A DNA stretch of 64,000 nt from Pseudomonadota bacterium (GTDB lineage Bacteria > Pseudomonadota > Gammaproteobacteria > UBA9214). Of the stretch, positions 45,775 to 64,000 are shown piece after piece. The stretch lies in the NCBI GenBank assembly GCA_039714975.1, contig JBDLIH010000005.1, forward strand, positions 12,857-76,856, given 5' to 3'. Each line of letters opens with the position of its first letter. The first letter of the stretch is position 1. Below the pieces are notes generated by a model that did not search any database, was not told where the DNA came from, and was given only the letters and a program-made list of their open reading frames with translations. Both the position numbers and the translations under genes were made by a program.

Positions 45775-45884
45775 AGTCTTTAATTTGTATTAACGACAGG
45801 CAGTCGCACGGATTAGTGGATTAAAAATCGAATCATACCTGTTTCAGGCTGTTTAGCCCAAGACTGTACACAGGTAATATTGTT

Positions 45885-45914
45885 AAAAAAAAAAGGGCGG
45901 AATAATCCGCCCTT
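45885..45914 (-). terminator. Rho-independent terminator after the small Cys-peptide gene
   Basis: The minus strand reads AAGGGCGG-attatt-CCGCCCTT followed by T10. Confidence 0.8.
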
Positions 45915-45965
45915 GGGGATGGAACTGGAAAGTGGGGGGTTCCAGTCCCTGGAAACCGTGCTGTA

Positions 45966-46178
45966 CTAGTTAGCGATGCAAACCTTGTTTTTATTACCCC
46001 CAGGGTAAGTCGTTCGCGCATTGCAAGCCGTCTTGTCGAGGATTTCATCGCAGGTTACCGTGCTTTCACAATCCGAATCGACTGCGTGGCTGGTGCTAAC
46101 CAGCATCAGACTGCCAATGGCCAGCAACAGGCCGCCAACAAGTAACAGGGTTCCTGCAATGCCGTTTCTCATGACCAT
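45966..46178 (-). CDS. Small secreted Cys-rich peptide (70-aa precursor)
   Basis: Signal/anchor GTLLLVGGLLLAIGSLMLVSTSHA. The mature ~37 aa has 4 Cys. It has its own sigma-54 promoter and intrinsic terminator. The C-terminus is homologous to the C-terminus of the cytochrome at 49265-51907. Confidence 0.7.
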   Translation of the reverse strand: MVMRNGIAGTLLLVGGLLLAIGSLMLVSTSHAVDSDCESTVTCDEILDKTACNARTTYPGGNKNKVCIAN

Positions 46179-46217
46179 CTTTTCTGAATAGTGTTTTCCA
46201 TATAATTAGTGAACAAG

Positions 46218-46232
46218 GCAAGCTTCATGCCA
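46218..46232 (-). promoter_or_regulatory. Sigma-54 (-24/-12) promoter of the small Cys-peptide gene
   Basis: The minus strand reads CTGGCATGAAGCTTGCC (TGGCAT-N5-TTGC). The -12 element lies 40 nt upstream of ATG 46178. Confidence 0.75.
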
Positions 46233-46308
46233 GGCACGGGTAAATCAGGAACTTTCTGGCAGAATAGGACGTTAGCTTACACATTCCTCCTGGTCCAGAT
46301 TAGAAGCA

Positions 46309-46356
46309 TGACAAATTTGTCAGGTATGTCACATACAGTCTGTCAGACAAATGACA
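46309..46356. promoter_or_regulatory. TGTCA/TGACA array (candidate enhancer/UAS), site A
   Basis: Five pentamers in 48 bp, including the perfect 14-bp palindrome TGACAAATTTGTCA (46309-46322) and TGTCAGACAAATGACA (46341-46356). Lies 75-125 bp upstream of the -24 box. Confidence 0.6.
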
Positions 46357-46578
46357 TTATTGGCAAAAAAAACCTGTATCAAGAAAGAAAACCTGCCAAG
46401 GGTACACATACACAGGGTTGTTTAATGAGGCAGCTGTAATTACGGGATGATTCATCGCGCCGGGGAGGGCGCTCTCACAGGTTGGTGAAATAATGCATGG
46501 TAGAAATGTTTGCCAGGCTGGTGTTGATCTGGAGAATAGGGTGTTCGGTCGTTATCACGCTTCACCCATGGACTAAAC

Positions 46579-47373
46579 ATGTTTCTGCGACTACCGAAAT
46601 TCATCTGTGCATTGTTCCTCGCCTGCATGGCCGGCTGTGCGCCCGACTCGGGCCAGCAACCGCAACTCATGGTGTTTGCCGCGGCAAGTCTGCGCGATGT
46701 CATGAGTGAAGTGGGTACGCGTTTTGAGCAGGAACACGGCATCCACGTCAACTACAACTTCGCCGGCAGTAATGTGCTTGCCCAGCAACTCCTTGCTGCC
46801 CCCAAGGCCGACCTCTTTCTCAGTGCCAACAAAGCCTGGATGCGGCGTCTGGGACAGGCTGAGCGGATCGTGCCCGGCTCGCACCAGGCGGTTCTGGGCA
46901 ACCGGCTCGTGGTCATCGCCAATCATGCCAGTATCCTGAAGGCTAATCCCCGGGAACTGTTCTGCACGCCCGGCTTTGAATACCTTTCCATTGGCAATCC
47001 GGAGGCAGTGCCCGCTGGAATCTATGCCAGGGAGTGGCTGGAAAAACTTCCCTGCGACGAGGGCAGCGCCTGGGACGCGGTTGCCGGCCGCATTGCGCCG
47101 GCGCCTGACGTGCGCGCGGCCCTGGGTCTGGTGGAAGCCGATCGGGATATTCCGGGAATTGTCTATGCCACCGATGCGGCCATGTCGGACAAGGTGCGCG
47201 TCATTCAGGAGGTGAGCGGTAACGATGCGCCCGTCATCCTCTATTACGCGGCCCTGGTGGACAACGAATCCAGCCATGAGCAGGCCAGGCTGTTTCTTCG
47301 TTTCCTGACCGGCGAGCAGGCCGCCGAAGTGTTCCGTCGTTACGGTTTTACCGGTCCGCAGAACCATGAATGA
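46579..47373 (+). CDS. modA: Molybdate ABC transporter substrate-binding lipoprotein ModA
   Basis: Lipobox [15 protein letters not shown], and the overall ModA pattern. Followed by modB and modC. Confidence 0.85.
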
Positions 47374-48046
47374 GGCCTCGCTGACGGCGCTGCTGTTGAC
47401 GCTGCAATATGCCTCGCTGGCCACGGCCATCGTCTTTGTACCCGGCATGCTCATTGCCTATGTGCTGGCACGTTTTTCCTTTCCCGGCAAGGTCTTCGTC
47501 AGTGCCCTGACGAGCCTGCCCCTGGTCCTGCCGCCCACTGCGGTGGGTTATCTGTTGCTGCAGATGCTCGCCACTGACGGGATTCTCGGCAGGGAGATTC
47601 TGGGTGTCGACCTGGACATTCTGTTGACCGGAAAAGCGGTCGTCGTGGCATGCGCGGTGATGTCGGTGCCGCTGATTATCCGGACTGCCCGGATCGCCTT
47701 CGAGGGGGTGAATGACCGCTACGAGGCTATGGCGCGCACTCTGGGTTATGGACCTGTAGAAACCTTTCTGCGTTTCACCTTTCCACTGGCGGCACGCGGC
47801 CTGCTGGCGGCGATGATCCTGGGTTTCACCCGCGCCATGGGCGAGTTTGGTGTGACCGTCACGATTGCCGGCAACATCCCCGGCCGCACCCAGACCCTGG
47901 CCTCTGCCATCTTCAGTGCCCAGCAGGTCGGCAACGATCACGAGGCCAATTTCCTGGTTCTCGTTGCCCTGGCGACCGGCTTTTGTGCGATCCTGGCGGC
48001 CGAGTTCCTTTCGCTACGGGGCGCGCGTAGACGCAAATCCCCTTGA
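47366..48046 (+). CDS. modB: Molybdate ABC transporter permease ModB
   Basis: Five/six-TM permease with the conserved loop ...[24 protein letters not shown]. Confidence 0.85.
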
Positions 48047-49146
48047 GCAACGGCCATGAAATTCGGGCTAAGCTGAATCTGCCCCTCGATCGATTCACCC
48101 TGTCAGTGGATCTCAAGCTGCGCCGGCATGTGACGGGTATCTTTGGGGCTTCGGGTTCCGGAAAGACCAGCCTGCTGGAGACTGTTGCCGGACTCCGCCG
48201 CAGTGCGCAGGGCATGCTCCGTCTGGGTGACCAGCTGTGGCAGGACTCTTACCGGGGCGCCTTCATGCCGCCTGAACGCCGCAATATCGGTTATGTGCCC
48301 CAGGATGCCCTGCTGTTTCCACACCGGAATGTGCGTGCGAACCTGCTTATTGGCCAGCGCCGGGCGCGGTGCCAGGGTCAGGATGTCGAGGCCCTGCAGC
48401 AGGAAGTGATCGCCTTGCTGGAACTGGATGCCCTGCTGGAGCGCAACGTCGACACTCTCTCGGGAGGGGAGCGCCAGCGGGTGGCCTTGGGTCGGGCTCT
48501 GTGTTCCGGACCGCGGCTGCTGCTGATGGATGAGCCACTGGCTTCCCTCGACCTGGGTATGCGGCGCAAGTTGTTGCCCTTTCTGCGCACGATCCGCCAA
48601 TCCTTCGACATCCCCATGCTATTGGTCTCACACGACCCAATTGAGGTTCAGGCCCTGTGTGATGAGTTGGTGGTCCTGCAGGATGGTCAGGTCATTGCCC
48701 AGGGTGAACCCCGGGTTACCCTGATGCAGGCGTCCCGTGATGCGGCGGAATTTGCGCATTTGGTCGAAAATGTACTGCCTTGCCGCTTTGAGCGTCATGA
48801 GGGCGAGGCAACTCTGGTCCGTATCGGGCTTGAGGGCGATGGCCCGCTGCTGACACTGCCCCGGGTGAGCGGGGCGGGTGCAAGCGCGCAGATGATTGCC
48901 GTGCGCAGCCGGGACATTATCGTATCCAATACCCGGCCATACGGTCTCTCGGCCCGCAATGTCCTGCCCGGTGTGGTGCGGCGGGTGGCAGCGGCCGGCA
49001 AGAAATACCTGGTCTTTTGCGCAGTAGACCGGAGCGCGGTGGAACTGGCCGTGGAAGTCACGCTGGCCTCGCTGCAGGAACTGGATCTCAAGCCGGAAAC
49101 CCCGGTGTTTCTTATTATCAAGGCAACTACCCTGGAACTCTGCTGA
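48043..49146 (+). CDS. modC: Molybdate ABC transporter ATP-binding protein ModC
   Basis: Walker [37 protein letters not shown], and a C-terminal Mop/TOBE-like ~130 aa. Confidence 0.85.
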
Positions 49147-49205
49147 ACCGCATCAGCACGCTGAGTCATGCAGGCATCAACTTGATGCGAACTGATAAAT
49201 GCAAA

Positions 49206-49239
49206 GGCCCGGGAGAAGTTCGCCCGGGCCGTTGATTTT
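49206..49239. terminator. Bidirectional hairpin terminator between modC and the cytochrome gene
   Basis: GGCCCGGG (49206-49213) pairs with CCCGGGCC (49223-49230). It is followed by gttgatttt on the plus strand and by tttgcattt on the minus strand. Confidence 0.55.
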
Positions 49240-49264
49240 CTACTTCAAGGTTAACCAGGTCCGG

Positions 49265-51907
49265 CTAGATCGGGCTACAGACCTTGTTCTTGTTGCTATA
49301 GCTGCAGGTGGCCTGCGCGTTGCAGGAGGTCTTGTCGCCGTTGTACTGCGAGCAGTCGACCTGCTCGCAGACAGGATCTCCGCCGCAGTTGTCGATGTCA
49401 TCACAGTCGACCAGTCCGTTGCAGTCGTTGTCAACACCGTCATCACAGGTCAGCTCCGTCGGCCCTTCCGGTGTACAGACGTTCGACACACACTGGCCGT
49501 TCTTTGGGCTGCCCTGCCAGTCACAGACAGGATCATTATTGCAGCTACCCTTGTCTTCGTGTATGGAGCAACCCTGGCCTGTTAGGCAGTCGGTATCCGA
49601 CGCATCGGTAAAACCATCACAGTCGTTGTCGACACCGTCAGTGCAGAAAGTTTCCTGTGTTTCCTGGCCGGGGGTCGGATTGCAGACCGGCGGGGTACCC
49701 CATTCGACCGAGTACATGACCACCGGCGGCACCATCTTGTAGTCGCCGTTGATCATCTGCACGCCGGTGATTGGCGCGCCGGTACTCTGGACAACGTCGG
49801 CATTGAGCCAGGCATCCATCATGGCGTCACCCTGATTGCCGAGGAACGCGTTCTCCCCGGTGTTGGCCATCTGCAGGAACTGTATGTATTCCCAGCTGGT
49901 GCCCTGATAGAGCAGGTCGATGGTGGCATGGACAGCACCGATTGGCGGGTTGAGCAATACATCGTCCGCGTGCTCGTAGGTATCGCCTGTCCTGGTATAA
50001 CGGGTTTCCGGCACCGGCAGTGCGTTGCGCTTCTTGGCTTCGGTGTAGCTCATCTGATACGGCGGAATGCGGTTGTCCTTGGATACGTAGTTGTTGAGCG
50101 CAAAATGGAAGGTCTCATGGTAGTCGCCCGAGCAATCAGGATACTGGACGGGATCGTCGAGCAGGAACTGACTGACAGTACAGTCTGGCAGACCCGTTAA
50201 GCGGTCATAGCTGAGCGCGAAGTCCGGGTCTTGCACGGCCTGCACGATAACAGCCCATTCCCTGGTGATGGCGTAGTGCGCTTCGTAGATCTCGGTGTTG
50301 GTGCCATCCAGCTTGAGGATGGTTTCCACGGCATCGGCCTGACCGTCACCGTCGAGGTCCATGTCGGTCTGCAGGCTGCCGTACGCGCCATCTTCTCCAA
50401 CCAGGGCGCCTTCACTGTCATACCACTTGATGTTCAGCCACATGCGGCGTCCTTCAGGGTAGCCGGTGATCAGCTTGTGGCCGGTCAGGTTGGTGACCGT
50501 GACGGTGTTGCCCGTTACCGACAGGGCACCCGCTTCACGCAGATGCTTGGTGGCGCGTTCCTGGCCGAGGTCCATTGCCAGCAGCTGGGTGCTGTTCAGA
50601 CCACCGCCTACACGCAGCGTACCGACGTCAGGCCGATCCTGGTACTGTGCCATGCTGGCGAACCAGTAGTTGCCGCCGGTGTGGTCATGGCGCGGCAGGT
50701 CGGACCGTGTCTTGACGTTCTTGTTGCAACCTTTGCCGGTAGTCGGGCGCATATGGCAGCTCTGGCAGCTGAATTTACGCGGTGTACCGTCAGCATAGTC
50801 ACCTTCGATTATGCTTGAGTCATTTGGGTCACCCGGATCTGCCGCGATGGCGGCCTGGTAGGTGACTTCAAGAGAACCGCCCGCCACCTGCAGGTCGAGC
50901 GGGAGATCTTCATTGAATCGGCCAACGCGCATGTTTGAAAGCGGGCTGGACTTGTATTCGCTGAAGGTACGTTCGACGATGCCGTAGGCATACGGCGGGT
51001 TGTTGAACGCGGCCTTGTTGACGATGGCGCCGCCCAGGCAGCCGCCGCCGACTGCGGACAGGTCGCCGCCCTCGGGAAACGGCAGGATGGTGTTGCCATT
51101 GTCATCGACACAGTCGAAATCACGACTTGAAATAACTGTTGCGTCTGTAGGCGCCAGACTCTGGGTGCCATGGTTGCCGGCGAGGTCACCCACCGCTGAG
51201 TTGGACACGTCGTGGCAGCTTCCGCAGAAATCCGGGTCGCGGTGCCATGCTGACTGTCTGAACTGGTGGCGTGCTTCGGCATCATCCTCAGCGTATGGTC
51301 CCAGTTTTACATTGACGTCAGGCCACAGCGAGAGCATGCCGCTGCCGTAGAAGCCTTCGCCAGCCGAGCCGGTCTTCGTACATTTGTCAGGGACGTTTGG
51401 ATCGGGCTCACAGTTGGCGATAAACGGCGAGTTCATCATGCCCTGCAGTATGGGGTCGGAATTGTTCGGGTTGGTCGCGGCATGGCAGGTATCGCAGTCG
51501 ATGCCGTTATCATCGCTCGCTGCCAGGCCGGAACCGTCGGTCGGTGTGGAGCGGCCATCATACCAACCCTTGGCGCTGTGGCAGCGGATGCAGAGATCGC
51601 CCGCGCCGTCGAAGTCCTGCTCGGCAATGGCCAGCGTGGCCCAGAACACCGGGTCACGTCCGGCGTTACCCATGGCGGCGCCGCGCCAGCCCGTGGCAGG
51701 TTCGGCGCCCGGGTCGTCGAGGTTGTATCCGGCGTGGCAGTTGTCGCACTTGTCCGGTGACTCGAAATTCCCGACTTCACCCGGCTGGGTGCCGGGCATC
51801 TTGATTTCGTTAGGCACAACACCAGCTGCTTGCGCAGTGATTGCGAATATTAGTGTCAGGCAGGCGAGTAGTGCACCTATAGGCAGGTCTTTGGTGAGGC
51901 TTGTCAT
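49265..51907 (-). CDS. Secreted five-heme c-type cytochrome with C-terminal Cys/Asp-rich (MopE-like) repeats
   Basis: Signal peptide ...IFAITAQAAG. Five CXXCH motifs (CDNCH, CIRCH, CDTCH, CGSCH, CQSCH). The C-terminal ~125 aa contains CTDGVDNDCDGFTD and CDDGVDNDCNGLVD repeats. Confidence 0.85.
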   Translation of the reverse strand: MTSLTKDLPIGALLACLTLIFAITAQAAGVVPNEIKMPGTQPGEVGNFESPDKCDNCHAGYNLDDPGAEPATGWRGAAMGNAGRDPVFWATLAIAEQDFDGAGDLCIRCHSAKGWYDGRSTPTDGSGLAASDDNGIDCDTCHAATNPNNSDPILQGMMNSPFIANCEPDPNVPDKCTKTGSAGEGFYGSGMLSLWPDVNVKLGPYAEDDAEARHQFRQSAWHRDPDFCGSCHDVSNSAVGDLAGNHGTQSLAPTDATVISSRDFDCVDDNGNTILPFPEGGDLSAVGGGCLGGAIVNKAAFNNPPYAYGIVERTFSEYKSSPLSNMRVGRFNEDLPLDLQVAGGSLEVTYQAAIAADPGDPNDSSIIEGDYADGTPRKFSCQSCHMRPTTGKGCNKNVKTRSDLPRHDHTGGNYWFASMAQYQDRPDVGTLRVGGGLNSTQLLAMDLGQERATKHLREAGALSVTGNTVTVTNLTGHKLITGYPEGRRMWLNIKWYDSEGALVGEDGAYGSLQTDMDLDGDGQADAVETILKLDGTNTEIYEAHYAITREWAVIVQAVQDPDFALSYDRLTGLPDCTVSQFLLDDPVQYPDCSGDYHETFHFALNNYVSKDNRIPPYQMSYTEAKKRNALPVPETRYTRTGDTYEHADDVLLNPPIGAVHATIDLLYQGTSWEYIQFLQMANTGENAFLGNQGDAMMDAWLNADVVQSTGAPITGVQMINGDYKMVPPVVMYSVEWGTPPVCNPTPGQETQETFCTDGVDNDCDGFTDASDTDCLTGQGCSIHEDKGSCNNDPVCDWQGSPKNGQCVSNVCTPEGPTELTCDDGVDNDCNGLVDCDDIDNCGGDPVCEQVDCSQYNGDKTSCNAQATCSYSNKNKVCSPI

Positions 51908-51958
51908 TGTGGATCCCCTCGTACGTTTTTTGGAACTTCGATTTGATCTACGTACAAA

Positions 51959-51973
51959 GCAAGAACGGTGCCA
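51959..51973 (-). promoter_or_regulatory. Sigma-54 (-24/-12) promoter of the five-heme cytochrome gene
   Basis: The minus strand reads CTGGCACCGTTCTTGCTT, a full match to TGGCAC-N5-TTGC. The -12 element lies 52 nt upstream of ATG 51907. Confidence 0.85.
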
Positions 51974-52062
51974 GATCTATAATAGATCTAAAATAGTAAA
52001 GAATATCTTAAGGTTATTCAGAAAAGATAAAATCCATGTTCAGCCTGACTTATGTTGATAGC

Positions 52063-52118
52063 TGTCAGAATTGGCAGAGAGGTGCCAATTCTGGTGTCAG
52101 TAGATGTCAGTAATGACA
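52063..52118. promoter_or_regulatory. TGTCA/TGACA array plus 11-bp perfect inverted repeat (candidate enhancer/UAS), site B
   Basis: TGTCA at 52063, 52095 and 52105; TGACA at 52114. CAGAATTGGCA-N6-TGCCAATTCTG spans 52066-52093. Lies 90-145 bp upstream of the -24 box. Confidence 0.6.
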
Positions 52119-52149
52119 GTACTGCGTGACTGGAGAAATACTGCAGGCG

Positions 52150-53007
52150 TCAGATTATGTCATGGCGTAACGCAAGACCAACGGCTTCTGTGCGGCTATG
52201 TACCCCCAGCTTCAGGAACATGTTCTTGAAATGGTTGCGTACGGTCTCGGCACTGATAAACAATTGTTTGGCAATTTGCGCGGTCTTCACTCCCTCTGAC
52301 GCCATGTTCAGCAATTGTTTTTCCCGGGGCGTCAGGCGACTGAAACATGTGTCGGGATGTGTATCGGTATTCTTCGTATTGGCCATCCGTTGCAGCAGTT
52401 GCCGGGTACTAATGTGCCGCAGGCTGAAAAAGACGCCAACGTTATCGGTATTCTGCTGTAATTCAGCCGGTGTGTAGTAAGCGCCCACATTGACCATAAT
52501 GGAATTACCGTTCTCGTGATCCACCATCATGTCGATATTCCCGGCCGCCGGCCTGCCGCTAGCCCTTTGGGAGAAGGGGCAATCGTGTCCACAAATGGCG
52601 TTTCCATGCAGGCCGACGCTGCACAGCACCCCGGCGCACGCGGTATTCAGGATATCTTCCCGGGTATGTCCCAGCAGATTTTCGCAACTGCTGTTCCAGA
52701 AGCGGATTCTTTTCTCACCATCAATGCCAAATACAGCATCTGTGCTCTGTTCAAAGACCTGGTACATGCCATTCATCATCTGGTTTCCCTTTAATGCATT
52801 ATCTGGAACCCATCCTTGTTGTTTATCAAACAGCCTTGTCCCGGTAACGATATATTCGGATGCACCAAACGTGCCAGAAATCTGTTTCGTATAAACAGAT
52901 GAATCTAAAGGTGTAAAATCACGGCTGCTCAGATCGTTCTGATCGAACATGACATAAATGACATATGTAAATGCCGATATGACGTTATTGGCATATTTTG
53001 GTGACAT
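52150..53007 (-). CDS. PAS-domain LuxR/FixJ-type (HTH) transcriptional regulator
   Basis: PAS core ...STDAVFGIDGEKRIRFWNSSCENLLGH... with a four-Cys cluster CAGVLCSVGLHGNAICGHDCP. The C-terminal HTH is LTPREKQLLNMASEGVKTAQIAKQLFISAETVRNHFKNMF. There is no receiver domain and the start is uncertain. Confidence 0.8.
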   Translation of the reverse strand: MSPKYANNVISAFTYVIYVMFDQNDLSSRDFTPLDSSVYTKQISGTFGASEYIVTGTRLFDKQQGWVPDNALKGNQMMNGMYQVFEQSTDAVFGIDGEKRIRFWNSSCENLLGHTREDILNTACAGVLCSVGLHGNAICGHDCPFSQRASGRPAAGNIDMMVDHENGNSIMVNVGAYYTPAELQQNTDNVGVFFSLRHISTRQLLQRMANTKNTDTHPDTCFSRLTPREKQLLNMASEGVKTAQIAKQLFISAETVRNHFKNMFLKLGVHSRTEAVGLALRHDII

Positions 53008-53237
53008 TAACTGACCAGGGAGGGAGGTTTTCCTCGTACGGTTTTGCCTGGTGCACTTTATCGAATATGACCCATGTGACGAGATTTATGACTCAAACGG
53101 GTCATTCATTCCGTATGGAGTAACCGCCAGAATCATTACCCATGACCAGTTGCCTGTGACGCCAGTGGTGTCGCAGGGTACGTGGTCCGGATAACGATAG
53201 TTCAACTAATTTTGGTCCGGTGACAGGAGGACAGGGG

Positions 53238-56030: not shown

Positions 56031-56132
56031 GCGGAGCACGTGAATTGAAGTGGAAAAATACAATGGTTAAGCAAATAAACAAGTTAACAGCGTTACCGGG
56101 TAACCGGGTAACCGAGACTGGAGGTACCTGCA

Positions 56133-57149
56133 ATGGCTAAAGGTGGAGGTGGTGGTGGCAATCAGATTGCGATGCTCATCAATCTTGATAAGTGTCTTGG
56201 CTGCCATACGTGTACGGTTGCTTGCAAGAACCTGTGGACCAACAAGGGTGGCCGCGAGTACATGTACTGGAACAACGTTGAATCGCGTCCCGGCGAGGGT
56301 TACCCGAGGAACTGGGAAGGTATGGGCGGTGGCTTCCAGGGCGGTCAACCTGACCCGGGTATCTTCCCGGCAAACAGCGACTACGGCCTGGGCGACCAGG
56401 GTCAGATCGTCGATTTCGATTATCCGACACGCCTGGGTCATGATCCGGACAACGTGACCCCGAATCCCGGTATCGTCGATGCCGACCCGCAACCGGAGTG
56501 GCTGTCCAACTGGGACGAGGAGCAGGGTGACGGTACGTTCCCGAACAGCTACTACTTCTATCTGCCGCGTATGTGCAATCATTGCGATCGGCCCGCGTGT
56601 CTGGAGTCCTGTCCGCGCAAGGCCATCTACAAGCGCGAGGAGGACGGCATCGTGCTGGTGGACCAGGATCGCTGCCGCGGCTACCGCCAGTGCGTGCGCA
56701 CCTGCCCCTACAAGAAAGTCTTCTTCAACAGCGAGACGCTGAAATCGGAGAAGTGCATCTTCTGCTACCCGCGTATCGAAGCTGGCGAGGCCACCGCCTG
56801 TGCGGTGCAATGCCCCGGCCGCGTCCGCCATGTGGGTTTCGTGAGCGACGCTTCCTCGGATGTCTACAGGCTGGCCAAGGACCTGAAGGTGGCCCTGCCG
56901 CTGCATCCGGAGTACGAGACCGGACCCAACGTCTACTATATACCGCCCTTCTCGGGGCCTTCACAGGTCGATTCGAACGGAAATCTGATAAACGTGGAAC
57001 GGATACCGGTGGCCTACCTGCGCTTCCTGTTTGGCGATGAAGTCGATGCGGCCATCGCCACCCTGCGAGACGCCAGGGCTAACGGCGACCCGGACGGCAT
57101 CCTTGCCATCCTGAATTCCAATAATCGTTACGACATACCGCAACCGTAG
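56133..57149 (+). CDS. Molybdoenzyme beta subunit (NarH/EbdB-like, four Fe-S clusters)
   Basis: CLGCHTCTVACK, CNHCDRPACLESCP, CRGYRQCVRTCPY and CIFCYPRIEAGEATACAVQCP. Confidence 0.9.
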   Translation: MAKGGGGGGNQIAMLINLDKCLGCHTCTVACKNLWTNKGGREYMYWNNVESRPGEGYPRNWEGMGGGFQGGQPDPGIFPANSDYGLGDQGQIVDFDYPTRLGHDPDNVTPNPGIVDADPQPEWLSNWDEEQGDGTFPNSYYFYLPRMCNHCDRPACLESCPRKAIYKREEDGIVLVDQDRCRGYRQCVRTCPYKKVFFNSETLKSEKCIFCYPRIEAGEATACAVQCPGRVRHVGFVSDASSDVYRLAKDLKVALPLHPEYETGPNVYYIPPFSGPSQVDSNGNLINVERIPVAYLRFLFGDEVDAAIATLRDARANGDPDGILAILNSNNRYDIPQP

Positions 57150-57159
57150 GGGGCTAGTC

Positions 57160-58392
57160 ATGAAAACGTCTATGATGAAACACAACTGGTTACGCCTCCT
57201 TTGCATCCTCGTGTGTCTCTCGTTCACCGCGGGCATGAGCGCCGGCGCCTTTGCGGCCCCTCCGGATCGAGACGGCGATGGTTACGATAAGCGATCCGAC
57301 TGCGACGACAATAATGCCGCCGTCAATCCGGGCGCAACAGAAGGCCCGTTTGGTGACGCGACCTGTTCCGATACCTGGGACAACGACTGCAATGGATTGA
57401 CCGATGGAGACGATCCGCAATGTCAGGGCGGTGTCACATGCACCGACAACGACCTGGATGGTTACGGCAGTCCGGGCGATCCCTCCTGTCCGAACGGCGG
57501 AGCCACGGACTGCGACGACAATAATGCTGCCGTCAACCCGGACGCGACGGAAGGCCCGTTTGGTGACCCAACCTGTACAGATACCTGGGACAACAACTGT
57601 AACGGATTGACCGACGTTGATGACCTGAGTTGCCAGCTTGTCGACGAGGTCTGCAATGATGGCTTCGACAACGACGGTGATGGCAATATTGACTGCGCCG
57701 ATTCGGACTGTGCCGGCGAATCTGCCTGCACCGCGGGCAATAAGCTGACGGTCAACCGAGTTACCGGCACCGTGCTGGGCATCGGGCCGGATGACGGTCT
57801 GTGGAACGCCACCGCAGCGACCAGCTACAACCTGGCCTGGCGCGACGATATCAATGATACCTGTCCGCCGGAGCAAAGCTGCAGTGGTAACCAGCCGAGC
57901 TTGACGGTCAAGGCCATCCACAACGGCACCGACATCGCCTTCCTGATGTCCTGGACCGATGTCGACCAGAGCAGCGAGGTCTATCAGCCGTCGGAATTCG
58001 GCGACCGCGCCGTGATCATGCTCAACGCCAACCGCATTTGCCAGATGGGCAGTCCGACCAATCCGACCAATATGTGGTTCTGGAATGCGGCGGACAAGAC
58101 CCAGGAGACCGAGGGATCATATGGCAGCGTGCAGAACCTGCTCGGGGGTGGGATCGGCACTATCACCCATACCGATGGCGACGACAACATCCAGGCAGTC
58201 AGCAGCTACGCGGGAGGCATGTGGCAGGTGGTAATGAGTCGTCCGCTGGCCGCGATTGATCCGCTTGATCAGTTCGAGTTTACTCTTGGTGTGACCACCG
58301 ATGTGTCCTATGCCGTGTATGATGGAGCGTTCAAGCAGCGCAACGGGTCCAAGTGGATCAGCGGCCGGGAAGCGATAAACATCGCACCTTGA
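57160..58392 (+). CDS. Molybdoenzyme gamma subunit (EbdC/DdhC/SerC-like heme-b domain) with N-terminal Cys/Asp-rich repeat extension
   Basis: Sec signal ...GMSAGAFAAPP. Residues ~35-200 hold three DxDxDG...CDDNNAAVNPxATEGPFGDxTCxDTWDNxCNGLTD-type repeats. The C-terminal ~210 aa is EB_dh-like (LTVKAIHNGTDIAFLMSWTD, FGDRAVIMLN, MWFWNA, GMWQVVMSRPL). Confidence 0.75.
   Translation: MKTSMMKHNWLRLLCILVCLSFTAGMSAGAFAAPPDRDGDGYDKRSDCDDNNAAVNPGATEGPFGDATCSDTWDNDCNGLTDGDDPQCQGGVTCTDNDLDGYGSPGDPSCPNGGATDCDDNNAAVNPDATEGPFGDPTCTDTWDNNCNGLTDVDDLSCQLVDEVCNDGFDNDGDGNIDCADSDCAGESACTAGNKLTVNRVTGTVLGIGPDDGLWNATAATSYNLAWRDDINDTCPPEQSCSGNQPSLTVKAIHNGTDIAFLMSWTDVDQSSEVYQPSEFGDRAVIMLNANRICQMGSPTNPTNMWFWNAADKTQETEGSYGSVQNLLGGGIGTITHTDGDDNIQAVSSYAGGMWQVVMSRPLAAIDPLDQFEFTLGVTTDVSYAVYDGAFKQRNGSKWISGREAINIAP
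57298..57414 (+). repeat. Intragenic direct repeat, copy 1 (~117 bp)
   Basis: gactgcgacgacaataatgccgccgtcaatccg...acctgggacaacgactgcaatggattgaccgat.... By eye it is highly similar to 57508-57624, offset by 210 bp (70 codons). Confidence 0.85.
57508..57624 (+). repeat. Intragenic direct repeat, copy 2 (~117 bp)
   Basis: gactgcgacgacaataatgctgccgtcaacccg...acctgggacaacaactgtaacggattgaccgac.... Confidence 0.85.
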
Positions 58393-58402
58393 TTGCCGGG
58401 CA

Positions 58403-59092
58403 ATGACTACAGAAGCAAAGGAGAACAACATGTCGGGACAAGCTGCACTGGAAATGACGAAGCTCACGGACGAGGATCTTGTCGATGTTAACCGCAGTCG
58501 GCTGTACAAGCTGCTTGCCCTGGGGTTCGGGTTTCCGTGCAAGGATTTGCATGATGCACAGGCCGAACTCCGGGAAATCGCGGCAGCGCTGTATCCCGAT
58601 CTGGAACTGAACCGGGAAGATGTGAACCTGCTGGCCCCGGAAATCGAGTCGTTGTACATCAATGTGCTCGATGGGCATAACCAGAAAAAGGCCTGCAGGC
58701 CCTACGAAACTGCCTGGCGAGAGGGCGAACGGTCCATGCAGCAGTGGGAAGTGAAGAAGTTATACCAGATATTCGGTCTGGAGCTGAACAAGGAAACCAA
58801 CGAGTTGCCGGACCATATCGTGAACGAACTGGAGTTCATGCATTTCCTCAGTCATCAGGCAGTGGAGGCCAGCAGGGGGCTGCTGGGTGATGGCGACAGC
58901 CGCAAGCAGTATGTGCATGCGCAGAAGGACTTTCTGGAGCGGCACCTCAGTCTGTGGGTGCCAAAATTCTGCAAGGCACTGCAGGAAAAGATTGACGAAC
59001 CGTTCTACATGAATCTCGCAGCCCTCACGGAACAGTTTGTCACGGATGACCTCGAGTGGGTGCAGGAGCAGTACGAGGCCGAGAACGGCTAG
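58403..59092 (+). CDS. TorD/NarJ/EbdD-family molybdoenzyme maturation chaperone
   Basis: RSRLYKLLALGFGFP and ELPDHIVNELEFMHFL. Its position is directly after the structural genes. Confidence 0.8.
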   Translation: MTTEAKENNMSGQAALEMTKLTDEDLVDVNRSRLYKLLALGFGFPCKDLHDAQAELREIAAALYPDLELNREDVNLLAPEIESLYINVLDGHNQKKACRPYETAWREGERSMQQWEVKKLYQIFGLELNKETNELPDHIVNELEFMHFLSHQAVEASRGLLGDGDSRKQYVHAQKDFLERHLSLWVPKFCKALQEKIDEPFYMNLAALTEQFVTDDLEWVQEQYEAENG

Positions 59093-59113
59093 CCGCGACT
59101 TCCATTTACTGCC

Positions 59114-60109
59114 ATGCCTAACCTTGTTGATTCGTTCGGGCGCTGCATCGATTACCTGCGGATTTCAGTTACCGACCGTTGTAATTACCACTGCTTCTAC
59201 TGCCGGCCGGCCGGTGCGGTGGTCGATGGCAGCCATCATGACTTTCTCAGGCATGAGGAAATAGCTCGCCTGGTCCGCCTGTTTTCCGAACTGGGTGTGA
59301 GCAAGGTGCGGCTCACCGGTGGTGAACCGCTGCTGCGGCGCAATCTTGCAGGGTTGGCGACCATGATCACCGGCCTGCCGGGGATTGCCGATCTTTCCCT
59401 GTCCACCAACGGCCATTTGCTCGAACGTTTCGCGGCACCGCTGCAAGCGGCGGGGATAGGGCGCGTCAATATCTCCCTGGATTCCCTGGATCAGGATAAT
59501 TTCTCGGCCATTACCTGTGGTGGCGATCTCGACTGCGTCATCAAGGGAATCGAGGCCGCTCAGGCAGCCGGTATGACACCGATAAAGATCAACATGGTGG
59601 TCATGAAGGGGGTCAATGAACACGAGATCGATAGCATGCTGGACTTCGCGCTGGAGCGGGGTCTGGAGCTGCGTTTTATTGAAACCATGCCGGTGGGAAC
59701 GGCCGGTGCCGGTAACATGGTCCATTATTATCCGGCTGCCCGGATTCTCGAGCATATTCGCGCGCATTACGGTTCCCGGCTTGTTCCCGTGCAGGGACAA
59801 CGCGGGCCGGGACCCGCACGTTACTATCAGGCCGGCGACAGTGATGTAAAGGTCGGGGTGATATCCGCGGTATCCAGGCATTTCTGCGAGAGCTGTAATC
59901 GCGTGCGCCTGACAGCGCGCGGCGATCTGGTGCTTTGTCTGGGTCACGAGGACCGGGTTTCATTGCGCAGTGCGCTGCGTGACGGGCGTTCCGATGCCGG
60001 GATCAAGCAGGACATCCTGGCAGCCATCGCGAGAAAACCGGAACACCATGATTTCAGCAGTAAGGCTGACCAGCCGGTTACCGCTCAAATGGTCACCCTG
60101 GGTGGATGA
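59114..60109 (+). CDS. moaA: GTP 3',8-cyclase MoaA (molybdenum cofactor biosynthesis)
   Basis: Radical-SAM CNYHCFYC and LTGGEPLLR. The C-terminal cluster is CESCNRVRLTARGDLVLCL. Confidence 0.9.
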   Translation: MPNLVDSFGRCIDYLRISVTDRCNYHCFYCRPAGAVVDGSHHDFLRHEEIARLVRLFSELGVSKVRLTGGEPLLRRNLAGLATMITGLPGIADLSLSTNGHLLERFAAPLQAAGIGRVNISLDSLDQDNFSAITCGGDLDCVIKGIEAAQAAGMTPIKINMVVMKGVNEHEIDSMLDFALERGLELRFIETMPVGTAGAGNMVHYYPAARILEHIRAHYGSRLVPVQGQRGPGPARYYQAGDSDVKVGVISAVSRHFCESCNRVRLTARGDLVLCLGHEDRVSLRSALRDGRSDAGIKQDILAAIARKPEHHDFSSKADQPVTAQMVTLGG

Positions 60110-60174
60110 AGCCCGGGCGGCACGATGACAACGGGTTCGAGCGTGAAGATAAAAAAGGCAGGAAACTGATTGGG

Positions 60175-60801
60175 ATGTCAGAGCACGGTGAGACAGGCAG
60201 GGTTCAGCCACTGACAGCAGCGCTGTTCAGTCTCATATTCGTGTGCGCATGCGTTCCTGTTTCCGCTGATGAATCGGTCGAGGCCGCCCGGGCGGCGGCT
60301 CACGCCGCCGAGGCAGCCAGAGAGGGAACCGGGATTCCTGCGCTTCCGGAGAAACAGATGGCTGCCTACCTGGATGGCCGGGCGATGTGGATGGCCAGTG
60401 TGGCAGAGCTGAATCATTATCCCGACCCGCGGCAGGTACTGGAACTCGCAGCGAAGCTTGAACTCTCCGCGGAACAGCAACAGGCCACCATGAAGCTTTA
60501 TGATGAAACACGCCCGGAGGCAATCCGTCTTGGCAAACAACTGGTAGAACAGGAGCAGAGACTTAACCGGGTCTTTGCATGGGGACAGGCATCAGGAAAA
60601 AATATCAGGCAAGTCGTGACTGACATCGGCGCACTTAAGGCAAAACTCAGATTAACGCATCTGCTGGCCCACATTAGTACAAGAGAACTGCTCACGGAAG
60701 ATCAGGTCAAGCGCTATGATGAACTTCAGGGCTATGGCGAAACAACCGGGGAGAGCGGTAACAGGATGGGCTGCAATGCCATGCATCATCACGGGCGCTG
60801 A
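60175..60801 (+). CDS. Periplasmic CpxP/Spy/ZraP-like protein with His-rich C-terminus
   Basis: Signal peptide ...LFSLIFVCACVPVSA. LTxxQ-type helices (LSAEQQQATMKLYDE, LTEDQVKRYDEL). The C-terminus is ...CNAMHHHGR. The start could instead be ATG 60106 (ATGA-coupled to moaA). Confidence 0.6.
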   Translation: MSEHGETGRVQPLTAALFSLIFVCACVPVSADESVEAARAAAHAAEAAREGTGIPALPEKQMAAYLDGRAMWMASVAELNHYPDPRQVLELAAKLELSAEQQQATMKLYDETRPEAIRLGKQLVEQEQRLNRVFAWGQASGKNIRQVVTDIGALKAKLRLTHLLAHISTRELLTEDQVKRYDELQGYGETTGESGNRMGCNAMHHHGR

Positions 60802-61622
60802 GAGGGTTTATTGTCCGAAGGTTGCTGCTCCAGCGCCTGTTTGATAGCACTATTGAACACGTTTACTGGTTGTGCACCAATAACGACCTTCCCGGTAATC
60901 TTCTTGCTGTCCGATTTCCCGATAATAAAGCTGGGTGTACCTGTCAATTTCACACCCCTGGCGTCTTGTGCATCCTTGTCGATTGCGTCGAGATGCCGGT
61001 CGCTGTTCAGGCAAGCATTGAAGGCTTCAACGTCCAGTGACAGCTCTTGGGCATAACCGGGCAGGTGTTGCACACCAATTGCTTTCGGGTTCTCGAACAG
61101 CGTTTCACGCATTTCCCAGAACTTGCCCTGGTCGCCCGCGCACAGCGCGCCCTGGGCTGCCTTGCGCGCGTCCTTGTGGAATGCCAGCGGCAGATTGAGG
61201 GCGACCCAGCGCACCTTGCCGGTATCGATGTAGTTTTTCTTTAAATGGGGGAACGTGGTCTTGCTGAAGCGCAGGCAAAACGGGCACTGGTAATCGGCGA
61301 ATTCCACCACGGTGACAGGGGCATCCGCGGAACCCATGGTTGGCCGACCCTCGATGTTCATCGTGGCGACCGTCGGTTTGGAAGGCCGCTTGGCGGTGCG
61401 TCCACCCTGTTTCTCAATCTTCTCCAGCACCTGTCTGATCGCCTTGAGTTCAAGCAGGATGGCATCCATCTTCACGTCGGGGTTAGTAGCCGAATCCACG
61501 GCTTCCTCCGTCATGGCTGCCGGTGACGTCAGCAGGGCAACAGCGGTCAGTGCCAGCGGAATACAGGTTTTAAACAACCGGGAAAGTCGATTGTTAGCGT
61601 TCGTGAAGTTTTGAATAGCCAT
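60789..61622 (-). CDS. DsbA-family thiol:disulfide oxidoreductase
   Basis: Signal peptide and thioredoxin-fold FADYQCPFCLRF. The 3' end overlaps the convergent gene by 13 nt. Confidence 0.8.
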   Translation of the reverse strand: MAIQNFTNANNRLSRLFKTCIPLALTAVALLTSPAAMTEEAVDSATNPDVKMDAILLELKAIRQVLEKIEKQGGRTAKRPSKPTVATMNIEGRPTMGSADAPVTVVEFADYQCPFCLRFSKTTFPHLKKNYIDTGKVRWVALNLPLAFHKDARKAAQGALCAGDQGKFWEMRETLFENPKAIGVQHLPGYAQELSLDVEAFNACLNSDRHLDAIDKDAQDARGVKLTGTPSFIIGKSDSKKITGKVVIGAQPVNVFNSAIKQALEQQPSDNKPSQRP

Positions 61623-61642
61623 GCTTAGTATCGTTATCTGTT

Positions 61643-61720
61643 ATGTCAATCATGTCAATCATGCCAATTATGTCATAAGTATAACCCGACATTATGTTAT
61701 ACTCACTGACAGTATTGACA
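61643..61720. promoter_or_regulatory. 9-bp-periodic ATGTCAATC iterons and TGACA pair upstream of the sigma-54 activator gene, site D
   Basis: ATGTCAATC ATGTCAATC ATGCCAATT ATGTCATAA (61643-61678), then TGACA at 61707 and 61716, again 9 bp apart. Confidence 0.6.
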
Positions 61721-61756
61721 GCAGACATGCAACACTACTGATTCCGTGGGGGCATC

Positions 61757-63163
61757 ATGAAAGATTCAATTTCCAATATCGTTAATTTGGTTGATCCGGT
61801 TACACCGGTCTCGGTTGAGTTGCAATCACTGGTTGACAGTCATGAACAACCGTTTGTCGTGATCGACAGGGATTACCGCATACTGGCAATCAACAGTGCC
61901 TACGAAAAGACCTTTGGCGTACGCTGTGACAAGGCCGTTGGATTGCCGTGTTACAAGGTCAGTCACGATAGCGAGGTACCTTGCCATGAATCCGGCGAAG
62001 ACTGCCCGCACGCCAATATGTTCGAAATAGGTAAATCTGATTCTTGCCTGCACGTCCACTTTGATTCAGACCACCGGATGTGTCAGGTCCGGGTAACTGC
62101 CTTTCCACTGCGTGGCAATAATGGCGAACTCTATATGGGTGAGCTGATTCAGCAGCTCTCGGGGCCTGAAGATCGCCGCGTCAATGGCCGGCGCATGGTT
62201 GGCCAGACACCCCCGTTTCTTGCCTGTATTGATCAGATGAAAATGATTGCAGCAGCATCGGCGCCGGTACTACTGCAGGGAGAAACCGGCACCGGCAAGG
62301 AGCTGGCGGCGCACTTTATTCATAGTCATTCCATGCGTCGTGAACAGCCGTTTCTTACCGTGGACTGTACGGTACTGACAGAACCCCTGTTCGAGGCCGA
62401 GGTCTTCGGGCATGCGCGCGGTGCCTATACCGGCAGTGTCGGTGACCGGACCGGTCTGTTCGAACAGGCCGATAGAGGCACCCTGTTTCTGGACGAGGTG
62501 GGTGAGTTGCCGCTGTCCCAGCAGGCCAAGCTGTTGCGAGTGCTGGAAACGGGGCAGTATCGCCGTGTCGGTGGTAAAGGGACTCGCAATGCAGACGTGC
62601 GCATTGTTTGTGCCACCAACCGGCACTTGTGGGAGTTGGTGAGTGCCGGTCGGTTCCGTGAGGATCTTTACTATCGGATCGCCTGTCTGTCTGTACGCTT
62701 GCCTGCACTGCGGGAACGGCTGGATGATATCGAGGTGCTGGCGCCTGATCTGCTGGGCCCGGTCAGCCATACCATGAATCAGAAGTTCAAACTGACCCAG
62801 GCGGCCATAGAGCGTCTCAAATTATATGATTACCCCGGTAATGTGCGTGAACTCCGCAACATCCTGTTTATTGCCGCCACACACTCCAGCGCTGGCGAGA
62901 TTGATGACACTATGATAGAAACCGTGCTGCAACAACTTGCCCATGGCAGGAATGACCGGAATCAGAAAGCGCCTGCGGAGGCCCAGCCGCTTGTGACAGA
63001 AGCATCACCCGGTAAGGCTGGCAAAGGATTGCATGAAGTGGAGGCAAAGCACATCGCTGAGTTGTTAGTGCAGCACCATGACAACCGCAGGCAGGTCGCG
63101 GCGGTACTCGGTGTCAGCGAACGCACCCTGTATCGGAAACTCAAGCGTTATAATCTGAACTGA
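61757..63163 (+). CDS. Sigma-54-dependent transcriptional activator (PAS - AAA+ - Fis HTH), no receiver domain
   Basis: PAS-like N-terminus with a four-Cys cluster ([29 protein letters not shown]). AAA+ [14 protein letters not shown], sigma-54 contact loop GAYTGS, and C-terminal [19 protein letters not shown]. Confidence 0.9.
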
Positions 63164-63301
63164 TCGAATCACTTTCAGCAGCCTGCCGGTAGAGAGGTCC
63201 TGTCGCCGCAGAATTTGTCAGCGCCGTTACCGGCGCGAGTTGTCACTGTAATCATCCACTGAAACCCGTTTGCATAAGTGTACAAACTGTCTTCGTTCGA
63301 A

Positions 63302-63365
63302 TGACAGCATTAACGGCGACCTCATGACAAACAAGACATGACAGCCCTGACGCGACTGTCATGAC
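63302..63365. promoter_or_regulatory. TGTCA/TGACA array (candidate enhancer/UAS), site C
   Basis: TGACA at 63302, 63325 and 63339. TGTCATGAC spans 63357-63365. Extra copies are at 63216 and 63241. Lies 75-140 bp upstream of the candidate -24 box. Confidence 0.55.
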
Positions 63366-63438: not shown

Positions 63439-63454
63439 TGGCATGGATTGTGCC
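63439..63454 (+). promoter_or_regulatory. Candidate sigma-54 (-24/-12) promoter of the downstream secreted-protein gene
   Basis: CTGGCATGGATTGTGCC. GG-N10-GC spacing is correct. The -12 reads GTGC rather than TTGC. Lies 110 nt upstream of ATG 63564. Confidence 0.5.
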
Positions 63455-63563: not shown

Positions 63564-64000
63564 ATGTTTAGAACTTCATTTTCACGAATCGCACACAAGG
63601 CACTGGCACTGGTTGCCTGTACCGGCGCCATCCTGGCGTTGGCGGCGGGGCCGGTATCGGCGGCGCACAACACGACGCTGACGATTAGCAAGGCGTCCTG
63701 GAATGATAAAAAGAGCGAACTGACCATTGAGGGTCGGGCTGAAGCCGGTTTTGAAGTCTTCGCCTCCAATGCGGCGGACGTTAGCCAGTCTCTGGGCTCC
63801 GATATTCCGGGCAATAACCAGCGATACAAGATTGTGGTTGCCGGGCCGATCAGCCCCTTCCCTTGTGCCGTGCACGTCGAACAGTGGGACGGTGTCGAAC
63901 TCGGCATCGTCGAGGCACCGGTTGCCAATGCACCGCCGGAGTGTCAGGGCGGCCAGAATCTGCCACCGATCTGTACTATCAACACCCCGACAGGCGATAC
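63564..64000 (+). CDS. 5' part of a secreted protein of unknown function (runs off the window; not in the ORF track)
   Basis: GGGAGA lies 7 nt before the ATG. My own translation is MFRTSFSRIAHKALALVACTGAILALAAGPVSAAHNTTLTISKASWNDKKSELTIEGRAEAG...APPECQGGQNLPPICTINTPTGD, open to the window end. The signal peptide has an A-x-A site. Confidence 0.6.
   Translation, partial: MFRTSFSRIAHKALALVACTGAILALAAGPVSAAHNTTLTISKASWNDKKSELTIEGRAEAGFEVFASNAADVSQSLGSDIPGNNQRYKIVVAGPISPFPCAVHVEQWDGVELGIVEAPVANAPPECQGGQNLPPICTINTPTGD

Follow-up and report, generated by a model that had tools for sequence, protein, structure and literature searches.

Introduction

Promoters read by sigma-54 RNA polymerase require an AAA+ activator, and a LuxR-type protein cannot activate them. 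In the norR-norVW system of Escherichia coli, the activator NorR carries a GAF sensor with non-haem iron and recognizes several GT-N7-AC sites upstream of a divergent sigma-54 promoter, at a position overlapping the promoter of its own gene. NtrC, a phosphorylated response regulator with TGCACC-N5-GGTGCA-type sites, and PspF act from dimer-sized palindromes 80-150 bp upstream of a -24/-12 promoter. The general mechanism of such bacterial enhancer-binding proteins (bEBPs) has been reviewed (PMC7057263). Here, we analyze a 64-kb window, the whole stretch from position 12,857 to 76,856 of contig JBDLIH010000005.1 (assembly GCA_039714975.1, a gammaproteobacterium of the UBA9214 lineage), in which arrays of the pentamer TGTCA and its complement TGACA lie near a gene for a PAS/AAA+/Fis-type activator. 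All coordinates refer to this window. Taken as a whole, the arrays are best explained as enhancers for the activator encoded at 61757-63163, which would be autoregulated and would control, via a LuxR-type regulator, a second tier comprising a reductase operon. Judging from sequence comparisons, we assign this reading a probability of roughly 75%.

Results

Pentamer clusters resolve into a 16-bp palindrome

Copies of TGTCA/TGACA were counted over the full length of the window, yielding 190 in total and a background of one per 337 bp; the first-pass annotation of this DNA had assumed one per ~500 bp, a difference that leaves its conclusion unaffected. At least four copies within 80 bp are found at exactly four places in the 64 kb, identical to the four intergenic ranges singled out by that annotation (5, 4, 5, and 4 copies), and the first 45 kb are indeed devoid of comparable clusters. 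The pairs it quoted are likewise present, with TGACA-N4-TGTCA at 46309, TGTCA-N4-TGACA at 52105, TGTCA-N6-TGACA at 46341, and TGTCATGAC at 63357. Dinucleotide-preserving shuffles produced 0.077 clusters per window, with no more than one in any of 300 shuffles, and shuffling within 100-bp blocks, which retains local AT-richness, gave an expectation of 0.012 versus the four observed, a density far above chance.

The window was pooled with 43 loci (L001-L043) encoding orthologues of the sigma-54 activator, all from uncultured Gammaproteobacteria (activator identity 48-82%, GC 42-70%). The spacing of successive TGWCA pentamers in this set displays a single sharp peak at 9 bp (84 cases versus a background of ~8), and TGWCA-N4-TGWCA dyads were observed 84 times compared with 4.6 expected. 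The central W of the half-sites is A or T, with all four combinations occurring, the left flank of the dyads is A/C and the right flank G/T (palindromic M/K), and the half-site variants TGGCA and TGCCA are tolerated. The recognition element is a 16-bp palindrome, M-TGWCA-N4-TGWCA-K, with a 14-base core, and its size matches that expected for a single helix-turn-helix (HTH) dimer, which may well be what binds it. The pentamer copies reported previously are hence real, but their unit is a dyad with 9-bp spacing rather than a loose cluster.

A position weight matrix (PWM) for scanning the window was built exclusively from the other loci, leaving the window out. All matches of at least 15 bits are located inside five arrays, as follows:

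46309..46365: array 1, dyads at 46309 (21.0 bits), 46318 (15.9 bits), and 46352 (15.7 bits, TGACAttatTGGCA), a lone TGTCA at 46341; five copies in 46309-46356; starts of at least 15 bits at 46309, 46318, and 46352
52063..52118: array 2, dyads at 52063 (13.5 bits, TGTCAgaatTGGCA) and 52105 (20.5 bits), TGTCA at 52095; four copies; start of at least 15 bits at 52105
61644..61720: array 3, four tandem half-sites at 9-bp spacing forming dyads at 61644, 61653, and 61662, an extra dyad at 61707 (19.3 bits); five copies plus a TGCCA variant; starts of at least 15 bits at 61644, 61662, and 61707
63302..63365: array 4, one-mismatch dyads at 63325 (15.3 bits), 63339 (11.9 bits), and 63348 (12.0 bits), TGACA at 63302; four copies in 63302-63361; start of at least 15 bits at 63325
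52950..53006: array 5, dyads at 52950 (22.0 bits, the best of the window) and 52980 (11.5 bits), TGACA at 53002; start of at least 15 bits at 52950

The first-pass count of four arrays thus missed array 5, which has a promoter of its own at 52876->52861 (see below). Strong dyads occur at a background density of 0.3-0.9 per 10 kb in control DNA. This DNA was drawn from the window (45 kb), from those parts of the related loci that are over 1 kb away from the activator gene (~450 kb), and from control loci (156 kb). A single strong dyad-like match lies within positions 1-40000 (14.2 bits at 13120). Array 2 additionally contains an 8-bp inverted repeat, AATTGGCA-N6-TGCCAATT, at 52069-52090, representing either two degenerate half-sites (TGGCA and TGCCA) 11 bp apart or the site of another factor.

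Arrays precede sigma-54-type promoters of extracytoplasmic and regulatory genes

Four predicted sigma-54 promoters were located downstream of arrays, together with the genes that they are predicted to drive:

46232->46217, minus strand: P1, TGGCATgaagcTTGCC, 85-128 bp from the dyad centres of array 1
45966..46178, minus strand: predicted P1 target, secreted 70-aa peptide with signal peptide and four Cys
51973->51958, minus strand: P2, TGGCACcgttcTTGCT, 11/12 match
49265..51907, minus strand: predicted P2 target, big880, a secreted 880-aa multiheme cytochrome
63439-63454, plus strand: P4, TGGCATggattGTGCC, a weaker 9/12 match, read directly
63564..64000, plus strand, continuing past the window end: predicted P4 target, secN, a secreted protein
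52876->52861, minus strand: P5, TGGCACgtttgGTGCA, 11/12, tied with P2 as the best sigma-54 match of the window
52150..52779, minus strand: predicted P5 target, a PAS-LuxR (GerE) regulator of 209 aa

Four of the five arrays (1, 2, 4, and 5) precede -24/-12 elements, with 81.5-139.5 bp between dyad centre and the GG of the -24 element. Identification of such elements downstream of arrays 1, 2, and 4 corroborates the earlier proposal that three arrays sit at enhancer distance from sigma-54 promoters. Across the window and the related loci, a -24/-12 element is present 40-200 bp downstream of 29 of 48 arrays, compared with ~11% by chance, and promoters equivalent to P4 were identified in L008, L018, L019, and L038. 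Collectively, this sequence evidence supports the conclusion that the arrays behave like upstream activating sequences of sigma-54 promoters. The sole candidate for a sigma-54 promoter of modA, TGGTGAAATAATGCAT at ~46483, was discarded, its GG-N9-GC spacing being one base short, as was a riboswitch or other RNA-based explanation, for which Rfam returned no matches at the gathering threshold.

The predicted target of array 1 is neither modABC nor ccm but the 70-aa peptide gene, behind which an intrinsic terminator lies at 45885-45912. Neither a dyad nor a sigma-54 promoter was found for modABC in the window scans, and the region in front of the reductase operon (53008-53219) lacks both as well, its top PWM score being 4.2. 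The notion that this island of genes is a single co-regulated unit is consequently borne out only in part, as modABC and the reductase operon are without an array. Nor is the regulon purely local, as had been assumed: it predates the island and is present in genomes without the reductase.

The product of big880 harbors five CxxCH heme motifs and, at its C-terminus, acidic double-disulfide repeats, and belongs to an uncharacterised, unnamed family of more than 4,500 members. A big880 homologue is the divergent, sigma-54-driven neighbour of the activator gene in L015, L037, and L041, whereas three big880 homologues without the activator nearby (in Ca. Thiodiazotropha, Nitrospirota, and Planctomycetota) have neither dyads nor a sigma-54 promoter. 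Homologues of secN lie downstream of the activator gene in L004, L007, L020, and L038, and the order activator, array, sigma-54 promoter, secreted-protein gene recurs 3' of the activator in related loci. Since array and promoter pairs in other loci precede genes for PKD, cadherin-like, and Big_9 surface proteins, multicopper oxidases, and small haem proteins, the conserved regulon appears to consist of extracytoplasmic redox and surface proteins.

A PAS-containing sigma-54 activator is the best candidate for the dyad-binding protein

The gene proposed to encode the dyad binder lies between arrays 3 and 4:

61757..63163, plus strand: PAS/AAA+/Fis-type HTH sigma-54 activator (bEBP), 468 aa

Its AAA+ sigma-54 interaction domain (PF00158, 4.3e-62) spans residues 148-313 and includes both a Walker A (GETGTGK) and a Walker B (LFLDEV) motif. 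The sigma-54-contacting loop reads GAYTGS; orthologues have either this form or GAFTGS. A C-terminal Fis-type HTH (PF02954 HTH_8, 1.4e-8, residues 425-465) is kept in all orthologues. Of 39 evaluable orthologous loci (48-82% identity, GC 42-66%), 33 have a strong dyad no farther than 330 bp upstream of the activator gene, as scored with a PWM trained on those same loci and a motif itself defined from the window. In addition, four loci with unrelated sigma-54 activators contain no clusters. As sigma-54 needs an AAA+ activator, and as the gene for this one is consistently flanked by dyads, the PAS activator is the best candidate for the binder. The first-pass annotation had named it as one of two possible binders, and the upstream dyads of 33 loci, together with the 29 arrays followed by a -24/-12 element, support this assignment.

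In the proposed mechanism, one HTH dimer would bind each 16-bp palindrome, and the ~2-3 dyads (4-7 half-sites) of an array should suffice to assemble the AAA+ hexamer, judging from the mode of action of the protein family. Across a distance of 80-140 bp, the hexamer would then make contact with the sigma-54 RNA polymerase of a -24/-12 promoter. The genes controlled directly within the window would be the 70-aa peptide gene, big880, secN, and the PAS-LuxR gene.

Several observations weigh against this reading. Upstream of the activator gene, six of the 39 orthologues lack a strong dyad, and the overlap between training and counted loci bears on the other 33. P4 is a weak promoter match, and array 3 as well as about half of the orthologous upstream arrays are without a detectable sigma-54 promoter. 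No IHF consensus was found in the enhancer-promoter spacers, and rpoN is not within the 64-kb window. The loop GAYTGS departs from the canonical GAFTGA, although F/Y and A/S exchanges in this loop are conservative changes and natural Tyr variants can be functional. Lastly, the HTH recognition helix is also found in an unrelated activator (L044), so that this helix alone does not explain specificity. Covariation of the recognition helix with the motif was uninformative.

The PAS-LuxR gene is a predicted target with a separate palindrome in front of the reductase operon

The longest open reading frame (ORF) of the PAS-LuxR gene (285 aa) is over-extended by 76 codons (52780-53007, minus strand). 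The 98 database homologues all measure 204-220 aa, and their alignments cover just the C-terminal 73% of this ORF; the start is therefore placed at M77 (52779), which renders array 5 intergenic. The over-called 5' end explains why array 5 was missed at first. On the minus strand, array 5 is followed by a spacer of ~75 bp, P5, a further spacer of ~85 bp, and the ribosome-binding site and ATG of the PAS-LuxR gene, with P5 positioned ~82 bp downstream of the proximal dyad centre.

This arrangement recurs at other LuxR loci. A homologue in L048/L049 (79% identity) is preceded by dyads of 17.7 and 18.6 bits and then TGGCACggttgTTGCC, and another in L050/L051 (46% identity, unrelated neighbourhood) by dyads of 19.6 and 18.2 bits, 42 bp apart, and then a sigma-54 promoter; strong dyads with a weak promoter match precede the homologue in L052 (44% identity). 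No dyads were found at LuxR loci L053-L055, and a metagenome scan for close LuxR relatives gave no matches. From these comparisons, the PAS-LuxR protein would be a target of the activator and a second-tier regulator, not the binder of the dyads.

The intergenic region between the LuxR gene and the reductase operon contains a palindrome that is not a TGWCA dyad:

53088..53105: ATGACTC-N4-GGGTCAT, sequence ATGACTCaaacGGGTCAT
53220-56030: reductase alpha, first gene of the operon, followed by beta, an EB_dh-type gamma, a NarJ-like delta, moaA, and a ZraP-like gene

Its generalized form ATGACYC-N4-GRGTCAT occurs once per LuxR-reductase pair (in the window, at 4617 in L048, at 904 in L049, and at 7719 in L053), and the 818 kb searched contain no further copy. 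L053 carries it although this locus is without TGWCA dyads, and the pairing of LuxR gene and reductase operon is itself conserved. The palindrome is probably the PAS-LuxR operator of the reductase operon, a candidate resting on its co-occurrence with the pair, and the reductase is probably reached only indirectly, via the PAS-LuxR protein and this different palindrome. The cascade would accordingly have two tiers: in the first, the activator would turn on the PAS-LuxR gene by way of dyads and sigma-54; in the second, the PAS-LuxR protein would, through ATGACYC-N4-GRGTCAT, probably activate the operon of a Nar/Pcr-clade reductase.

In the reductase region analyzed (53220-58392), the active-site stretch of the alpha subunit, FYDWYCDLPPGSP..GEQTDV, is presumably NarG-like. 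Overall, alpha is closest to perchlorate reductase PcrA (PDB 4ydd, 863 bits), within the Nar/Pcr clade. The gamma subunit is not of PcrC type and has an EB_dh haem-b domain after MopE-like acidic double-disulfide repeats. These repeats are duplicated by a 129-nt direct repeat in the gamma gene (57298-57426 and 57508-57636, 83% identity), and the same repeat type is seen at the C-terminus of big880. A stretch of 32 nt at the 3' end of the alpha gene (55987-56018) reappears right after the stop codon (56030-56061, 78% identity) and looks like a small tandem duplication.

Alternative explanations of the dyads

The dyads could be sigma-54 enhancers bound by a different, unlinked enhancer-binding protein, with the PAS activator as just another target, a reading that we consider unlikely. 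The adjacency of array and activator gene is correlative, the HTH helix of the activator is not distinctive, as noted above, and some loci (L016 and L041) encode a second activator paralogue. Yet the link between array and activator persists across 48-82% identity and very different neighbourhoods, self-adjacent sites are usual for NorR, PspF, and NtrC, and loci with unrelated activators are without arrays.

We regard as somewhat less probable still that the dyads are operators of the PAS-LuxR (GerE-type) protein, the second binder named by the first-pass annotation, which would then regulate the activator gene and others. LuxR-type HTH dimers do bind palindromes, and the arrays upstream of the LuxR gene in the window, L048, L050, and L052 are readable as LuxR autoregulation. 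However, a search of 10 kb around the 43 activator loci identified neither the PAS-LuxR gene nor reductase genes at any of them (0/43), while dyads are present at 33 of 39; LuxR homologues may lie elsewhere in the genomes of L001-L043, and their absence within 10 kb is not proof. The arrays are at enhancer distance from -24/-12 promoters, which a LuxR-type protein cannot serve, and the LuxR homologues are themselves preceded by dyads and a sigma-54 promoter. Moreover, the LuxR-reductase pairs L053 and L055 lack dyads, and L053, the window, and L048 share the other palindrome instead. Because dyads accompany the activator gene, LuxR is absent nearby, and target homologues without an activator have no dyads, we assign the motif to the PAS activator rather than to LuxR.

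A very improbable third view is that the arrays are Pho boxes, i.e., PhoB sites made up of direct CTGTCAT repeats with an 11-bp period. The core of the Pho box is TGTCA, and genes for PhoR, PhoU-domain proteins, Ppk, and a Na/Pi transporter are found in the window, the first 45 kb of which are devoted to phosphate metabolism. The spacing of the half-sites is nevertheless 9 bp, with the 11-bp class at background level; both orientations are used about equally, in all four combinations; and the arrays contain no 11-bp direct repeat, the two array matches to the consensus having 3/14 mismatches and opposed half-sites. The arrays are situated 80-140 bp upstream of -24/-12 promoters, not over a -35 region, and they track the activator gene and not pho genes. 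Spacing, orientation, and position of the sites therefore exclude the Pho-box reading.

That the clusters arose by chance or are sigma-70 -35 hexamers in AT-rich promoter regions has a negligible probability: TTGACA does contain TGACA, and one sigma-70-like match falls within array 3, but shuffles retaining local composition leave four clusters unexplained, TGACA is preceded by A or C in 16 of 21 cases and by T in just three, the dyads keep a strict 9-bp register with palindromic flanks, and the arrays are conserved across 43 loci.

Array 3 and a proposed history of the locus

The array nearest to the activator gene is flanked on its other side by a divergent gene:

60789..61622, minus strand: DsbA-like thioredoxin lipoprotein gene, divergent from the activator gene

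Array 3 fills the 134-bp gap between the two genes, 22 bp and 37 bp from the dsbA-like and activator start codons, respectively, in agreement with the earlier statement that a fourth array precedes the activator gene itself. No sigma-54 promoter was found on either side, and the sigma-70-like match inside the array consists of the repeats themselves. From its placement, the array appears to overlap the core promoter regions of both genes and probably modulates both promoters. Given this position and the analogy with NorR, PspF, and NtrC, we infer repression, and autoregulation of the activator would most likely be negative.

In relatives, the equivalent array serves a divergent sigma-54 promoter (L006, L008, L011, L014, L015, L019, L025, L029, L034, L035, L037, and L041), which in L006 and L035 drives the signal-peptide remnant of a big880 homologue. 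Furthermore, an FNR/CRP-type box, TTGAT-N4-ATCAA with at most two mismatches, was detected in 27 of 39 loci (0.16 expected), just upstream of or overlapping the first half-site, as exemplified by TTGATctatGTCAA in L001 and TTGATatatATCAA in L030; upstream of the activator gene in the window this box is degenerate. Two perfect TTGAT-N4-ATCAA boxes are found elsewhere in the window (10839 and 31654). A class II FNR geometry was rejected, the distance from the box to the best -10 candidate (TATACT) being ~10 bp too long.

The activator gene of several relatives (L002, L006-L012, L015, L027, L035, and L041) is located ~600 bp from a divergent ccmA or adjoins a divergent big880. In the window, ccmA and the activator gene are 15 kb apart, separated by modABC, big880, the LuxR gene, the reductase genes, moaA, the zraP-like gene, and the dsbA-like gene, and the segment from the LuxR to the dsbA-like gene is placed exactly between arrays 2 and 3 (regions compared: 45775-46580 and 52150-61622). 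We hypothesize from this synteny that an array-bearing intergenic region ancestrally lay between big880 and the activator gene, and that its array came apart when the LuxR-to-dsbA cassette entered it. The borders of the island show no flanking direct repeats and no break in GC content or skew. Elsewhere in the window, the first 40 kb encode phosphate metabolism functions (PhoR, PhoU-domain proteins, a Na/Pi cotransporter, polyphosphate kinase, and a CHAD protein), followed by ccmABCDEFGH-like cytochrome c maturation genes at 39.9-45.8 kb.

Cysteine-rich PAS domains in both regulators

The PAS domain of the activator (61814-62200) contains four Cys and three His residues that are invariant across 20 orthologues, and that of the PAS-LuxR protein (52330-52779) three invariant and one near-invariant Cys. 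Profile-profile alignment with hhalign relates the two domains with a probability of 94.6% (E = 7e-8, 70 columns, two Cys aligned). Searches with the activator PAS domain yielded ~60 database matches, mostly fragments of Gammaproteobacterial sigma-54 regulators, and a search of the PDB for relatives gave none with an E value below 0.01. A metal or Fe-S cofactor and a cue shared by both PAS sensors are plausible; that the signal is redox, O2, or a metal is a guess. A more ambitious proposal, which we put forward as doubtful, is that both regulators contain an undescribed type of Cys-rich, Fe-S- or metal-binding PAS sensor and form a coherent feed-forward loop. A single redox, O2, or metal cue would thereby induce a module for electron transfer outside the cytoplasm (multiheme cytochrome, multicopper oxidases, and adhesin-like surface proteins) and, through the LuxR protein, the periplasmic Nar/Pcr-clade reductase. 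If true, such a loop would constitute dedicated control of a respiratory or metal-transforming lifestyle in uncultured Gammaproteobacteria of the sulfur cycle.

Discussion

The mechanism proposed here is the textbook mode of an enhancer-binding protein and conceptually not surprising, and the value of the analysis therefore lies in annotation and hypotheses rather than in a new concept. An uncharacterised activator family that occurs in many uncultured sediment and soil Gammaproteobacteria thereby gains a precise cis-element, five mapped arrays, and a set of four predicted sigma-54 promoters. Proteins without an assigned function, namely the multiheme cytochrome family of big880, small Cys-rich peptides, and PKD/cadherin-like surface proteins, are joined into one testable regulon. 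The start of the PAS-LuxR gene is corrected, and a candidate regulator cascade into a Nar/Pcr-like molybdoenzyme is exposed. The motif is immediately usable for genome-wide regulon prediction in these metagenome-assembled genomes.

Literature searches for a TGTCA-type sigma-54 enhancer, regulator family, or regulon gave nothing relevant. PilR sites are described as a 'NifA-like TGT-N11-AGA sequence and nearby GTCT elements' (PMC6058289), a source that does not bear out 'TGTC repeats' as PilR sites. The resemblance is a loose one, restricted to short TGT/GTC-containing elements repeated upstream of sigma-54 promoters, whereas PilR is a response regulator, and motif sequence and spacing, orthology, sensor domain, and regulon all differ. 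The Pho box shares the TGTCA core with our arrays, but its 11-bp direct repeats lie over a sigma-70 -35 element, unlike the 9-bp, either-orientation dyads of the predicted sigma-54 enhancers. With respect to the second tier, NreB/NreC of Staphylococcus similarly couples a Cys-rich PAS sensor to a LuxR/GerE-type output that controls a Nar-type molybdoenzyme operon, as the PAS-LuxR protein may do for the reductase; NreB and NreC are, however, a kinase and response-regulator pair rather than one fused polypeptide, and their Cys spacing differs.

NtrC and PspF are matched both in the placement of dimer-sized palindromes upstream of a -24/-12 promoter and in the C-terminal Fis-type HTH, while the activator described here differs from NtrC in being no phosphorylated response regulator, in its site, and in the lack of a detected IHF consensus. 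The closest analogue appears to be the NorR-type layout. Both proteins lack a receiver domain and have their sensor joined straight onto the AAA+ and HTH domains, and in both systems the number of sites fits the needs of a hexamer. The several dyad sites of NorR, placed upstream of a divergent sigma-54 promoter, overlap its own promoter and give autoregulation; this layout recurs in relatives of the locus, and in the window the position of array 3 suggests autoregulation. The two part in the sensor and its site, a Cys4-His3 PAS domain with TGWCA-N4-TGWCA here and a GAF domain with GT-N7-AC in NorR, in the own-gene array of the window, whose divergent sigma-54 promoter is lost, and in scale, with at least five arrays in place of one.

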